Shown here in pieces: positions 3,550-55,760 of a DNA stretch of 64,000 nt. How positions within the stretch are numbered: the first letter of the stretch is position 1; the number at the start of each line of letters is the position of its first letter. The notes beneath the pieces were generated by a model that had not been told where the DNA came from, did not search any database, and was given only the letters and a program-made list of their open reading frames with translations. The DNA comes from Escherichia coli. GTDB taxonomy: Bacteria; Pseudomonadota; Gammaproteobacteria; Enterobacterales; Enterobacteriaceae. The stretch lies in NCBI RefSeq assembly GCF_036507355.1, contig NZ_AP027877.1, one strand, 5' to 3'. The translations under genes and the position numbers were made by a program.

Positions 3550-5285
<1,736 letters not shown>

Positions 5286-8430: not shown

Positions 8431-11612
<3,182 letters not shown>

Positions 11613-11650: not shown

Positions 11651-12915
11651 ATGAGAAAAATAGTGGCCATGGCCGTTATTTGCCTGACGGCTGCCTCTGG
11701 CCTTACCTCTGCTTACGCGGCGCAACTGGCTGACGATGAAGCGGGACTACGCATCAGACTGAAAAACGAATTGCGCAGGGCTGATAAGCCCAGTGCTGGC
11801 GCGGGAAGAGATATTTACGCATGGGTACAGGGAGGATTGCTCGATTTAACAGTGGTTATTATTCCAATATTATTGGCGTTGAAGGCGGAGCGTATTATGT
11901 TTATAAATTAGGTGCTCGTGCTGATATGAGTACCCGGTGGTATCTTGATGGTGGTAAAAGTTTTGGCTTTGCCCTGGGGGCAGTAAAAATAAAACCCAGT
12001 GAAAATAGCCTGCTTAAATTAGGTCGCTTCGGGACGGATTATAGTTATGGTAGCTTACCTTATCGTATTCCGTTAATGGCTGGCAGTTCGCAACGTACAT
12101 TGCCGACAGTTTCTGAAGGAGCATTAGGTTATTGGGCTTTAACGCCAAATATTGATCTGTGGGGAATGTGGCGTTCGCGAGTATTTTTATGGACTGATTC
12201 AACAACCGGTATTCGTGATGAAGGGGTGTATAACAGCCAGACGGGAAAATACGATAAACATCGCGCACGTTCTTTTTTAGCCGCCAGTTGGCATGATGAT
12301 ACCAGTCGCTATTCTCTGGGGGCATCGGTACAGAAAGATGTTTCCAATCAGATACAAAGTATTCTCGAGAAAAGCATACCGCTCGACCCGAATTATACGT
12401 TGAAAGGGGAGTTGCTCGGCTTTTACGCGCAGCTCGAAGGTTTAAGTCGTAATACCAGCCAGCCCAATGAAACGGCGTTGGTTAGTGGACAATTGACCTG
12501 GAATGCGCCGTGGGGAAGCGTATTTGGCAGTGGTGGTTATTTGCGCCATGCAATGAATGGTGCCGTGGTGGATACCGACATTGGCTATCCCTTTTCATTA
12601 AGTCTTGATCGTAACCGTGAAGGAATGCAGTCCTGGCAATTGGGCGTCAACTATCGTTTAACCCCGCAATTTACGCTGACATTTGCACCGATTGTGACTC
12701 GCGGCTATGAATCCAGTAAACGAGATGTGCGGATTGAAGGCGCGGGTATCTTAGGTGGTATGAACTATCGGGTCAGCGAAGGGCCGTTACAAGGGATGAA
12801 TTTCTTTCTTGCTGCCGATAAAGGGCGGGAAAAGCGCGATGGCAGTACGCTGGGCGATCGCCTGAATTACTGGGATGTGAAAATGAGTATTCAGTATGAC
12901 TTTATGCTGAAGTAA
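11651..12915 (+). pseudogene. uidC: outer-membrane glucuronide porin UidC, disrupted by a 1-nt deletion in a T-run near 11845
   Basis: Signal-peptide ORF 11651..11911 and ORF 11821..12915 are in different frames; total span is 1265 bp, one short of 1266 (421 aa plus stop). Frame switch localises to gat tta aca, where an intact gene would read gat ttt aac (..GGLLDFNSGYY..). Confidence 0.75.
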
Positions 12916-17731: not shown

Positions 17732-20094
<2,363 letters not shown>

Positions 20095-48170: not shown

Positions 48171-48512
48171 TTAGGGGGTAATAACGCGGCCAGTTCGACG
48201 GTCCAGGCAGCGCAAAGTATTGGGCTCCCAGTAGGCATTGATGTTGGCGCTTTGCTCACATTTATCGCGGTTATCAAAAGCGGCGTCGGCTTTATCCCAC
48301 TCTTTTTCAGTGCGTTTATTCACTTTCTGACGCAGATTGCGCGTGTCATTCCATTGCTCTTTTTCCATAGCGGCGTGCTGGCGGCTTTGTGCACTGTCGC
48401 CAGACTCAATCACCAGTTTGTTAGTTTCGGCATGAACAGTTGTGCTCAATGCCAGTGCGCAAGGCAGCAGAAAAGCGAGCAGGCCGATTCGTTTGCTGAG
48501 AGTGATTTTCAT
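48171..48512 (-). CDS. ynfB: UPF0482 secreted protein YnfB
   Basis: 113-aa ORF with signal peptide. Confidence 0.85.
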
Positions 48513-48646: not shown

Positions 48647-48973
48647 ATGATTAAAACAACGTTACTATTTTTTGCTACTGCGCTGTGTGAAATTATTGGA
48701 TGCTTTCTGCCCTGGTTGTGGTTAAAACGAAACGCCAGTATCTGGCTGTTGCTTCCGGCGGGGATTTCACTGGCGCTGTTTGTCTGGTTGTTAACGTTGC
48801 ATCCTGCGGCGAGTGGGCGTGTTTAGGCGGCTTATGGTGGCGTTTATGTCTGCACGGCGTTGATGTGGCTGCGCGTTGTGGATGGCGTGAAACTGACTCT
48901 TTATGACTGGACGGGTGCGTTGATTGCACTTTGCGGCATGTTGATCATTGTTGCGGGCTGGGGGCGCACGTAG
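48647..48973 (+). pseudogene. ynfA: UPF0060 membrane protein YnfA interrupted by an in-frame amber codon at 48824..48826
   Basis: ORF stops after ...HPAASGRV at TAG (gtt TAG gcg); the same frame then reads [48 protein letters not shown] to a TAG at 48971..48973, giving the expected 108 aa if the internal TAG were a sense codon. Confidence 0.8.
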
Positions 48974-49178: not shown

Positions 49179-50393
49179 ATGAAGATCGTAAAGGCTGAAG
49201 TTTTTGTTACCTGTCCGGGGCGTAATTTCGTCACATTAAAAATCACCACTGAGGACGGTATTACGGGCCTTGGGGATGCCACCCTCAATGGACGTGAGCT
49301 TTCCGTGGCCTCTTATTTGCAGGATCACCTTTGTCCGCAGCTTATTGGTCGCGATGCGCACCGTATCGAAGATATCTGGCAGTTTTTCTATAAAGGTGCT
49401 TACTGGCGTCGCGGTCCGGTTACGATGTCGGCCATTTCAGCGGTTGATATGGCGCTGTGGGATATTAAAGCCAAAGCTGCCAACATGCCGCTTTACCAGT
49501 TACTCGGCGGCGCGTCTCGTGAAGGGGTGATGGTTTATTGCCATACCACCGGTCACAGTATTGATGAAGCTCTGGATGATTATGCCCGTCATCAGGAGCT
49601 GGGATTCAAAGCCATCCGCGTGCAGTGCGGAATCCCTGGTATGAAAACCACCTACGGCATGTCGAAAGGTAAAGGTCTGGCTTATGAACCCGCAACCAAA
49701 GGACAGTGGCCGGAAGAGCAGCTGTGGTCGACGGAGAAATACCTCGATTTCATGCCGAAATTGTTTGACGCGGTACGTAACAAGTTTGGTTTTAATGAAC
49801 ATTTGCTGCATGACATGCACCATCGCTTAACGCCTATTGAAGCGGCGCGCTTTGGTAAAAGCATTGAAGATTATCGCATGTTCTGGATGGAAGACCCGAC
49901 GCCTGCGGAAAACCAGGAATGCTTCCGTCTCATTCGCCAACATACCGTCACACCCATCGCAGTGGGTGAAGTCTTCAACAGCATCTGGGACTGCAAACAA
50001 CTGATTGAAGAGCAACTCATCGATTATATCCGCACCACGCTGACCCATGCAGGCGGAATTACCGGTATGCGCCGGATTGCCGATTTTGCTTCGCTGTATC
50101 AGGTACGTACTGGCTCGCACGGTCCTTCCGATTTGTCACCAGTCTGCATGGCTGCGGCGCTGCACTTTGATCTGTGGGTCCCCAATTTCGGTGTCCAGGA
50201 ATACATGGGTTATTCCGAACAAATGCTCGAAGTCTTCCCGCACAACTGGACTTTCGATAACGGCTATATGCATCCGGGAGACAAACCGGGTCTTGGTATC
50301 GAATTCGATGAAAAGCTGGCGGCGAAATATCCCTATGAACCTGCTTATCTACCAGTCGCACGTCTGGAAGATGGCACGCTGTGGAACTGGTAA
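49179..50393 (+). CDS. rspA: starvation-sensing protein RspA (enolase-superfamily mannonate dehydratase-like)
   Basis: 404 aa from [10 protein letters not shown]; enolase-superfamily fold. Confidence 0.92.
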
Positions 50394-51424: not shown

Positions 51425-51470
51425 TACTGAGGTGTACTGGCAATAGCGGACACTACCATTTGTTCTTTTT

Positions 51471-52289
51471 TTAAGCAGCCATCTGATGATATTTTTCCCT
51501 GAAGGCTGCCGGGGAGATATTCCCCAGACGAGAGTGACGACGCTGACGATTGTAGAAAATCTCAATGTATTCCCGTATTACTGAGATGGCTTCATCCCGG
51601 TTATTAAAACGATAGTGGCTCAGGCTCTCATTTTTCAGCGTTCCCCAGAAGCTTTCCATCGGAGCGTTGTCGTAACAGTTACCTTTACGCGACATTGATG
51701 TTTTCAGACCAAACTGCTCCTGTATGACCCGGTAATCGTATGCGCAGTACTGTGAACCTCGATCAGAGTGGTGGATTAGCCCGGCAGGTGGGCGCTGTCT
51801 CCTGAGCGCCATAAACAGGGCTTTACCTGTCAGCTCTTTTGTCATGCGCTCTCCCATGGCGTAGCCGACAATTTCGCACGTATAAACATCTTTGATGCCA
51901 GCGAGGTACAACCATCCCTCCTGTGTGGCAACATACGTCAGGTCCGCCACCCAGACCTGATTTGGTGCTGTAGGAGCGAACGTCTGGTTCAGCAGATTTG
52001 GCGCAACTGGCAGATTGTGGTTCGAGTTCGTAGTCGCTCTGAACTTGCGTTTCTGCTTACAGCGTAGCCTTAGCTCCTTACGAAGACGTGCCAGTCGGTC
52101 ACGACCAACGATGATGCCATTCTCTGCCAGCTCCGTCTGGAGCCGCCGGGTTCCATATGTTTCGCGAGTGCGGATATGTGCCACCTTAATCTCCAGTTTT
52201 AGCCGCTCATCACTTTGTTTTCTGTCTGAGGGTTCATGCTGTACCCAGTTGTAATAACCGCTCCTGGATACACCAAATACCTGACACAT
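51471..52289 (-). CDS. IS600 transposase OrfB (DDE integrase domain)
   Basis: 272-aa ORF recognised as IS600 OrfB; DDE-type catalytic core. Confidence 0.88.
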   Translation of the reverse strand: MCQVFGVSRSGYYNWVQHEPSDRKQSDERLKLEIKVAHIRTRETYGTRRLQTELAENGIIVGRDRLARLRKELRLRCKQKRKFRATTNSNHNLPVAPNLLNQTFAPTAPNQVWVADLTYVATQEGWLYLAGIKDVYTCEIVGYAMGERMTKELTGKALFMALRRQRPPAGLIHHSDRGSQYCAYDYRVIQEQFGLKTSMSRKGNCYDNAPMESFWGTLKNESLSHYRFNNRDEAISVIREYIEIFYNRQRRHSRLGNISPAAFREKYHQMAA

Positions 52290-52324
52290 CGCTTCAATGG
52301 GAAATTGTTGTCGCCATTGTTCGA

Positions 52325-52627
52325 TTAACGCGTATTTTTCAGCGACTCCTGTGCAAAATACGCTGTTGCTTTTTTTAATATATCTCGCTCAAGGCGAGCT
52401 TCATTTAACGCCTTACGCAGTTGCAGAATTTCAGATTCCAGTTCAGCCACCGTGCGGGAACCAGGAGTACCGAGCCCTTTTCTGGCGGCGGTAACCCATT
52501 GTCCTAAAGTGCCTTCAGGAAGAGATAATCGGGAAGCGCCTTCACTGATCGAAAGTTGATTTTCAAGAACCGTTCTGACAGCTTCGGCTTTGAACTCTTT
52601 AGAGTAACGTTGGGTTTTTCTGCTCAT
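52325..52627 (-). CDS. IS600 transposase OrfA (HTH)
   Basis: 100-aa ORF MSRKTQRYSKEFKAEAVRTV... recognised as IS600 OrfA; ends at the slippery heptamer. Confidence 0.88.
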   Translation of the reverse strand: MSRKTQRYSKEFKAEAVRTVLENQLSISEGASRLSLPEGTLGQWVTAARKGLGTPGSRTVAELESEILQLRKALNEARLERDILKKATAYFAQESLKNTR

Positions 52628-54386
52628 TATTAGCTCCTTCTGATGCCATTCTATTTCAGGAAGGAGTGTCCGTTAAACTCAGGCTACCTCATACCAATAA
52701 CGGCGAGTAAGTAGTACGCATCTTACCTCTTTTTTAGAGATAACCATTATGTCAATAGAAAAACACGAAAGAAGCACTAAGGATTTGGTGAAAGCAGCAG
52801 TATCGGGATGGCTGGGCACTGCGCTTGAATTTATGGATTTCAAGAGTCATGCGTGTTAACTATTTGATAAATATTAAATTAATTTTTCATTGCTTCGTTA
52901 TGGGGCATGGTTGGGGCAAACTCGCTTAACTGTGTATTTAACAAAGCTACCTGTGCATTATTGTTTTCAGACATCCATTTTCCGTATAGACCCTCCGCAT
53001 CTTGAGAGTGTTGGTGATAACGCCTGGATGGGAAAGAAATATGGACGGCTGAATAAAGATGCCTGGCGTGATGATTCGCGACAGAGATTTAAAGAAGCCT
53101 TTCGGGTGTTGAGGCCGCACGGCGTTCTGATTTTTTAATGGAATGAAACGCAAATACCGGTAAGCCAGATTCTGGCACTGACAGACAGAAAACCTGTTAT
53201 CTGTCAACGAACAGGGAAAAAACGATAAAACCCACTGGATTATTTTTATGAAAGAGGCATCCAGTGAGTAGATTCGTAAGGCTACAGATACGTATATCTG
53301 AATAATTAAATTCAGTTCTGTAAATAAAATTTAATCCTTAACCGGATGGATTTCTGCACCCTCAGAACATCAGGAGGCCGCCCGAAAGGGCGGTAGTGAA
53401 ATGCGAAAGTTCAAAATTATTATTGAAACGGGAATAGCTGGTGGAGATTTTGAGGATGTATTCGAAGTGGACGATGACGCAACACCTGAGGAAATTCATG
53501 ACGGAGCATAAGAAATTTTCTTTAACTACTGCAATTACTCATACCACGAAATAAAAGACGATGAGGAAGAACAAAGTGGCTGATTTTTGTTCAGCTAAAT
53601 ATAACATCAGTTTTGAAGAGCGGGATGAACTATTAATGGACTATGGTGAGTTACGCGGTGGAAGTGCTGCTGATGTCGAATCCTAGCGTGATGACTATGA
53701 AGCGGGAAAAACTCCGGTCGAAGCATATTGTGATGAGTGGGGCGATGAATGAGCGAGATTAATTATCAGGAAGGGCATGAAACGGCGGGGCAAGCAAAAC
53801 CAGTGGCATGGCGATATCGCTACGTGAAAAAAGGCGTTACGGACTTTCAGGGGAAGTAGTGGTCTGGTGACTGGAAATATGTACCGAAAAAAGAGGATTG
53901 TAACGACAGGCCGAACTATCAAATTCAGGCCTTATTCACTGCCTCACCAGTCCCAGTTACATCAGAAGAACTGGTTAAAGCTGTGCACTTTTATGAACAA
54001 CTAAAACGCGAAAATCCACCAACATCCGGCAACTAGATTAATGGATTAACTATGTCGGTTAAACGACCAGCCAACTGAAAAAGCGGAAACCTGATTACAG
54101 GTTGCCAGATAAGGCAATGAGCTACCTGGCGCGGAACGGACTGATAAGTATGGGGAATGTTTTACGATGAACCTTTAGACTAAAGAGTTTGTAACGCTAT
54201 GTAAGTGATTTTTTCTGGTTTAGATATTTATATGTCCGGCCAAATTGAGGTGTGTTTAAATGTAATTGCACATTGATTGTAGGAGGAATAATGAAAAACG
54301 CATTGCAGTTTTTGTTTGTTGCGTTCTGGTTGTTCGCATCATGTATGCCCATCATCTTCACAGCAAGGTGAATCGCCACGGATAAT

Positions 54387-55199
54387 CTAGACACTTCCGA
54401 GCCGTTGATAATACTGGTTTTCATATTCTGTCGGTGACATCTGATCGCTGGAACCATGCCGACGCTTACTGTTATAAAACATTTCGATGTAATCAAAAAT
54501 ATCGCTGCGGGCTTCTTCCCGCGTTCCGTAGATCTTTTTCTTTATCCGTTCGCGTTTCAACAACTGGAAAAAGCTTTCTGCAACCGCATTATCATGGCAG
54601 TTACCGCGACGGCTCATGCTGCCATCCAGGCCGTGTGATTTCAGGAACGACTGCCACTCATGGCTTGTGTACTGACTGCCCTGATCCGAATGAACCAGCA
54701 CCTGTTTTTGGGGATTACGGCGCCATACAGCCATCAGCAGTGCGTTCAGGACAATGTCCTTTGTCATCCGGGATTGCATGGACCAGCCGATAATTTTGCG
54801 TGAGAACAGATCAACAACCACGGCAAGATACAGCCAGCCTTCGTGGGTCCTGATGTAGGTTATGTCCGTTACCCAACGCTTATCCGGAGCATCCGGATTG
54901 AACTGTCGCTGGAGCCTGTTGGGCGACACGATACTGGCCTCGCCTTTACGTGCCCGCGGGCTCCGGTATCCGACCTGAGCCTTTATCCCGACACGTTTCA
55001 TCAGTCGCCAGACTCTGTTCACTCCGCACTGTTGCCCGCTGTCCCGCAGATCCAGATGGATTTTGCGATAACCATAGACGCATCCCGATTCCAGCCAGAA
55101 CTGTTTAATCTGCCCTGTCAGCCTCAGGTCTGCCTGATGGCGTTGTGAATGCGGCTGCTGAAGCCAGGCGTAAAAACCACTGGGATGAACATCCAGCAC
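54387..55199 (-). CDS. IS3-family transposase OrfB
   Basis: 270-aa ORF with DDE integrase core (…HSDQGSQYTS…, …GNCHDNAVAESFF…). Confidence 0.85.
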   Translation of the reverse strand: MLDVHPSGFYAWLQQPHSQRHQADLRLTGQIKQFWLESGCVYGYRKIHLDLRDSGQQCGVNRVWRLMKRVGIKAQVGYRSPRARKGEASIVSPNRLQRQFNPDAPDKRWVTDITYIRTHEGWLYLAVVVDLFSRKIIGWSMQSRMTKDIVLNALLMAVWRRNPQKQVLVHSDQGSQYTSHEWQSFLKSHGLDGSMSRRGNCHDNAVAESFFQLLKRERIKKKIYGTREEARSDIFDYIEMFYNSKRRHGSSDQMSPTEYENQYYQRLGSV

Positions 55200-55255
55200 C
55201 CGACAGAGCAGGCGAACAGGCCAGCAACAGGTGTTGTCACGGATAAAGGCGTACC

Positions 55256-55540
55256 TCAGTCGGACAGCTTTGCGAAGTACGCCGCGGCTTTTTTTAATAT
55301 GTCCCGTTCGTCGGTAACCCGCTTCAGCTCTTTCTGGAGACGGCGGATCTCGGCCTGAGCATCTGACTGTTCTTTATTAGCGGAAGAATCCGGACCGTAC
55401 TTCTTTATCCAGGCGTAAAGGCTGTGGGTGGTGATATCGAGACGTGTTGCAACGCTGGCAACAGAATAACCGCGATCAACAACCTGTTTGACTGCTTCAA
55501 TTTTAAACTCTTCGGGATAACGCTTACCGCTCATGGGCAC
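55256..55540 (-). CDS. IS3-family transposase OrfA
   Basis: 94-aa HTH ORF ending at the slippery heptamer. Confidence 0.85.
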   Translation of the reverse strand: MPMSGKRYPEEFKIEAVKQVVDRGYSVASVATRLDITTHSLYAWIKKYGPDSSANKEQSDAQAEIRRLQKELKRVTDERDILKKAAAYFAKLSD

Positions 55541-55760
55541 CTCTCTTTAAGCCATCTTAAATGACTCTGAGGTGTCTGTTAAACCCGTGGCGATTCATAA
55601 TTGATCATGGGTTGTCAGTTAAACTCGTGGCGATTTAAATAGACTAATTGGGAGTGCGTCCATTACTTATATCTTGTAATGTTAACTATCAGAAATTCTT
55701 GTAATGTTAACTATCAGAAATGATACAAAGATAATATGTCTTTAAAGAAAAGGCTGATGG

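Follow-up and report, generated by a model that had tools for sequence, protein, structure and literature searches.

In the stretch of Escherichia coli DNA analyzed here (64,000 nucleotides, hereafter the window), ynfA is best explained as an ordinary, recent, lineage-specific nonsense pseudogene, a reading to which, taken as a whole, we assign a probability of roughly 0.93. The proposed sequence of events is simple. A C→G transversion at position 48826 turned the invariant Tyr60 codon, TAC, into an amber codon, and would have done so in the ancestor shared by the members of a rare E. coli lineage that includes the source genome and at least the assemblies GCA_905398585.1 and GCA_047852605.1. 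Translation would then end after Val59, leaving a 59-residue fragment which, of the four predicted transmembrane helices, would hold roughly the first two. Lacking Tyr60 and the entire C-terminal half, such a fragment should be unable to form the four-helix EmrE-like YnfA transporter. The result is a pseudogene of a small, non-essential putative efflux transporter.

The amber codon in ynfA

The window is E. coli chromosome and is reverse-collinear with the MG1655 interval between ~1.704 Mb and 1.653 Mb, with 98.4–99.0% identity and the gene order ydgJ ... uidRABC ... fumAC ... pntAB ... ynfM–ynfC, speG, ynfB, ynfA, rspAB. The ynfA pseudogene (48647–48973, plus strand; 108 codons and the native stop) occupies the orthologous site between ynfB (48171–48512, minus strand) and rspA (49179–50393, plus strand), in the same order as in MG1655 and E. 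coli strain S43. It aligns with K-12 ynfA at 99.1% identity without a gap and matches the UPF0060/YnfA family profile, Pfam PF02694. Its frame opens at the ATG at 48647, begins MIKTT, ends GWGRT* and terminates at 48971–48973 with a native stop that is also TAG. A scan for promoters and terminators around the gene gave a number of sites not above the expectation from shuffled sequence.

The earlier note on this DNA had read an amber codon in ynfA at 48824–48826, produced by a single substitution in a 108-residue UPF0060 protein whose frame runs on to the normal stop, and each of these points holds. The window has GTT TAG GCG at 48821–48829, and the TAG (48824–48826, plus strand) is codon 60 of the frame, in place of the ancestral Tyr codon TAC. 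The change is a derived G at 48826, where K-12 MG1655 and S43 have C, and it is the sole non-synonymous difference from either sequence; apart from it, ynfA shows one synonymous difference from S43 (codon 94, GCA vs GCG) and two from K-12 (gene positions 159 and 282). The note had also placed the truncation at residue 59, which stands insofar as 59 of the 108 residues are left and Val59 is the last of them, whereas the stop itself is codon 60.

The lesion thus divides the gene into two parts. As judged by translation and the PF02694 profile, the remaining open reading frame (codons 1–59; 48647–48823, plus strand) covers the N-terminal half, including the conserved Glu15. The untranslated C-terminal remnant (codons 61–108 and the native stop; 48827–48973, plus strand) is still in frame, and its 48 codons encode the K-12 residues unchanged, with synonymous changes alone. 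Those downstream codons are undamaged, and the lesion is recent. Because the frame is set by 107 codons with K-12-identical residues, chance is not an issue for this TAG.

Family comparisons indicate how much of the protein has gone. When codon 60 is repaired, YnfA scores 164.3 bits against PF02694 over profile positions 1–106 of 107, whereas the truncated product scores 84.4 bits over positions 1–59 of 107. Both values exceed the gathering score of 24.9 bits, and ynfA is a member of the UPF0060/YnfA family by descent, with an incomplete product that falls short of a full-length member (~108 residues, the whole profile and four predicted transmembrane helices). PF02694 was the sole match in a Pfam scan at E ≤ 0.01, with no Multi_Drug_Res hit; the SMR-like (EmrE-like) assignment of YnfA comes from the literature (PMC9295541).

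The check that the note had proposed, an orthologue alignment, shows that the natural protein goes past codon 60. All 13 aligned orthologues, drawn from the four genera Escherichia (coli, ruysiae, albertii and fergusonii), Citrobacter, Enterobacter and Atlantibacter, are 108 residues long and have Tyr at position 60; identity across these genera is 84–97%, and the C-terminal half is strongly conserved. A wider search of homologue databases returned thousands of YnfA matches, and the best 120 are mostly 108 residues long. Work on Shigella flexneri YnfA, which is predicted to have four transmembrane helices, has identified Glu15, Gly18 and Tyr60 as functionally important, with the Y60A variant impaired in ethidium and acriflavine efflux and resistance (PMC9295541). 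In the window, Glu15 and Gly18 are kept and Tyr60 is lost to the stop.

Distribution of codon-60 stops and the question of adaptive loss

Sister assemblies were recovered by exact look-up of the RspB and YnfE variants of the window. The ynfA TAG is present in GCA_905398585.1 (contig CAJPYR010000009.1), which has 2 differences from the window in 17,682 bases, and in GCA_047852605.1 (contig ABXVUV010000008.1), which has 1 difference in 17,471 bases, corresponding to flank identities of 99.989–99.994% over 17.5–17.7 kb. The two assemblies come from separate submitters. Gene callers left the ynfB–rspA interval empty in both of them, and the ynfA of GCA_905398585.1 has one more non-synonymous change, T11S. 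The lineage-specific alleles of the window are common to just a handful of assemblies, and a literature search on the lineage's assembly accessions found nothing relevant. A premature in-frame stop stands where the outgroups have a sense codon and is repeated in independent assemblies; on these sequence comparisons, the TAG is a genuine mutation, derived relative to the outgroups and fixed in a small clonal lineage.

Two 61-base probes, alike except that one has TAG and the other TAA, were run against the complete RefSeq E. coli genomes. Each probe had exactly one mismatch in ~4,804 scorable genomes and neither found a full-length perfect match, so the base equivalent to 48826 must be C or T in all of these genomes, and codon 60 is a stop in none of them; a further ~580 complete genomes fall outside this score, as a SNP close by interrupts the megablast word. 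The complete RefSeq genome closest to the window region reaches at most 99.4% identity, which places the source genome outside the RefSeq complete set used. This distance and the presence of IS600 had raised the idea of a Shigella origin, which was dropped because exact protein matches (DDBJ BED22311 to BED22356, locus tags VEE46_) belong to a genome deposited as E. coli. An exact scan of the GTDB species representatives with a 42-base TAG-bearing sequence gave no matches.

A second nonsense allele exists at the same codon. Exact look-up of the 59-residue YnfA product found TAA at ynfA codon 60 in two contigs, one from a gut metagenome assembly (ERZ28664450 scaffold_669, 1122–1301) and the other from a public read set (SRR13077680_24915, 1097–1276). 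The TAA allele resembles that of the window in affecting the same nucleotide of the same codon and in leaving the same 59-residue product, and differs from it in having A rather than G and in its haplotype, which departs from the window at 34 of 3,852 bases (0.9%) and does not match it at gene position 159. The TAA allele is an independent nonsense event in a different E. coli lineage. The other eight of the ten contigs among the matches listed end inside codon 60; these are contig breaks and are uninformative on the allele.

A TAC→TAA change at codon 60 on a separate haplotype is what might be expected if ynfA inactivation were adaptive, that is, if loss of the transporter had been selected rather than arising by neutral decay. 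However, the look-up with the 59-residue product can return codon-60 stops alone, and 39 nucleotide sites in ynfA are able to mutate to a stop. Because the search was conditioned on codon 60 and so many other sites could yield a stop, neither a hotspot nor selection can be inferred, and the idea of a mutational hotspot at this codon is likewise unsupported. In addition, codon-60 stops number zero among the scorable complete genomes, and the conservation of YnfA over four genera argues for purifying selection in general. We regard adaptive loss as improbable. Slightly less probable still is the proposal that inactivation of ynfA recurs in particular E. coli lineages, as the TAG and TAA stops at Tyr60 hint, and that its loss is selected in some niche, or else that a natural suppressor keeps ynfA and uidA partly functional.

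Further lesions in the window and amber suppression

Across the part of the window that is collinear with K-12, all K-12 genes were compared for lesions. The earlier note had counted the ynfA stop as the second TAG lesion of the window, correctly: the other is in uidA (8431–10242, plus strand), where codon 492 has changed from TGG to TAG (W492*; 9904–9906) relative to K-12 and the other outgroups. This lesion predicts a β-glucuronidase-negative strain. The truncated UidA of 491 residues is not on record by exact look-up. In uidC (11651–12915, plus strand) a 1-base deletion at 11847 shifts the frame at codon 66, and in malX (3550–5141, minus strand) a 1-base deletion at 4076 shifts the frame at codon 356; neither deletion lies within a long homopolymer.

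These lesions can be dated relative to one another by means of two close relatives, L027 (SRR32181686) and L028 (SRR17480487), which are 99.96–99.98% identical to the window. Both relatives have the uidC deletion, which is found in neither K-12 nor the other outgroups, and both have an intact uidA, with TGG at codon 492. The malX gene is intact in L027, the sole relative contig that reaches it. On this comparison, uidA W492* and the frameshift in malX are confined to the window's strain; the frameshift in uidC and the ynfA stop are older. The uidA amber is younger than the ynfA amber, which the lineage shares.

Some further changes are private to the window's strain. MalX carries P25S, and Tus (tus, 19132–20061, minus strand) carries R145C at window position 19629, a variant that exact look-up finds in no other genome. 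Among the private SNPs in ~39 kb, five of seven are G:C→A:T transitions, and the protein is altered or damaged by most of the private changes that fall in coding sequence, a pattern that very recent mutations would be expected to show.

That both nonsense lesions of the window are TAG, and that the sequence 3′ of the ynfA stop is undamaged, could be taken to mean that the lineage has an amber suppressor tRNA or efficient UAG read-through, with both codons decoded as sense; if the suppressor inserted tyrosine, YnfA would be wild type again. Several observations speak against this idea. First, suppression would lead one to look for lesions that are TAG only and were acquired together, whereas the window holds two frameshifts, in uidC and malX, which are beyond rescue by any suppressor, and its ambers date from different times. 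Second, given ancestral TAC and TGG codons, the chance of both becoming TAG is ~1 in 4. Third, the native stop of ynfA is also TAG, and a suppressor would lengthen the normal protein too. Finally, ARAGORN, run on the window, found no tRNA gene there, and natural isolates seldom carry amber suppressors. We therefore consider suppression unlikely, and distinctly more so than adaptive loss. The two ambers seem to have arisen independently of each other in the course of mild gene decay and are not a sign of amber suppression.

Mobile elements add to this picture. An IS600 element of the IS3 family (51428–52690) lies directly downstream of rspB and before ynfP. The contig of GCA_905398585.1 stops ~79 bases into IS600, and because it reaches into the element, the insertion is common to the lineage. 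After ynfP comes a prophage remnant (52989–55597) that lacks the integrase/exonuclease/dicB section of the Qin-like prophage; left in it are a fragment resembling a methyltransferase and a second element of the IS3 family (54369–55597, with inverted ends at 54369–54406 and 55560–55597). The whole arrangement of rspB, IS600, ynfP, remnant and IS occurs in no complete RefSeq E. coli genome. The end of the window is Qin-like prophage DNA with 99.5% identity to K-12, much above the 98.4–99.0% of the backbone. Taken together, the ambers in ynfA and uidA, the two frameshifts (uidC and malX) and the inserted IS600 suggest that gene decay is somewhat elevated in this lineage.

Consequences of truncation and comparison with known systems

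From the truncation we infer that ynfA has lost its function. One could imagine instead that the 59-residue N-terminal fragment, or a C-terminal fragment made by restarting translation, still works as a half-size membrane protein. The N-terminal fragment does keep the conserved Glu15 and two hydrophobic segments, with cores centered at residues 9–19 and 37–49, and TTG and ATG codons stand in frame at positions 72 and 73. Nevertheless, the uniform 108-residue length of the 13 aligned orthologues, and of most of the best 120 matches, leaves little room for a working half, and Tyr60 is required for activity (PMC9295541). Moreover, codons 72–73 have no Shine–Dalgarno-like sequence upstream, and a restart there would give just about one helix. 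Exact look-up of a GTG-start 62-residue product of ynfA likewise finds none on record. A functional half-protein is very unlikely. Barely credible, finally, is the idea that the TAG reflects a mistake made in sequencing or assembling one genome, with ynfA in fact intact: absence of the allele from every scorable complete RefSeq E. coli genome is what such an error would produce, but the identical TAG occurs in two independent assemblies with flanks that are 99.99% identical, and the change is a substitution rather than a homopolymer indel.

Loss of YnfA by nonsense mutation, the reading we prefer, has several practical implications. For annotation, ynfA in this lineage is to be flagged as a pseudogene. 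In addition, the TAG could serve as a lineage marker SNP. The phenotype is expected to be mild: knocking out ynfA in S. flexneri raises sensitivity to cationic dyes, ethidium and acriflavine among them (PMC9295541), and by analogy the window's strain may be slightly more sensitive to the same dyes and to biocides.

Compared with K-12 ynfA (b1582) and S. flexneri YnfA, the window gene has the same ynfB–rspA locus, 99.1% nucleotide identity and the same residue at 107 of 108 codons, and it differs in having TAG rather than TAC at codon 60 and in the loss of the C-terminal half. More broadly, it resembles the nonsense pseudogenes by which single lineages of E. coli and Shigella are marked, where a one-base change puts a premature stop into a conserved, non-essential gene that is otherwise intact, and becomes clonally fixed. 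As in general E. coli and Shigella gene decay, the lesion is accompanied by others, here the uidC and malX frameshifts, the uidA amber and IS600. Set against such lineage-specific nonsense pseudogenes, the ynfA case shows nothing unusual.
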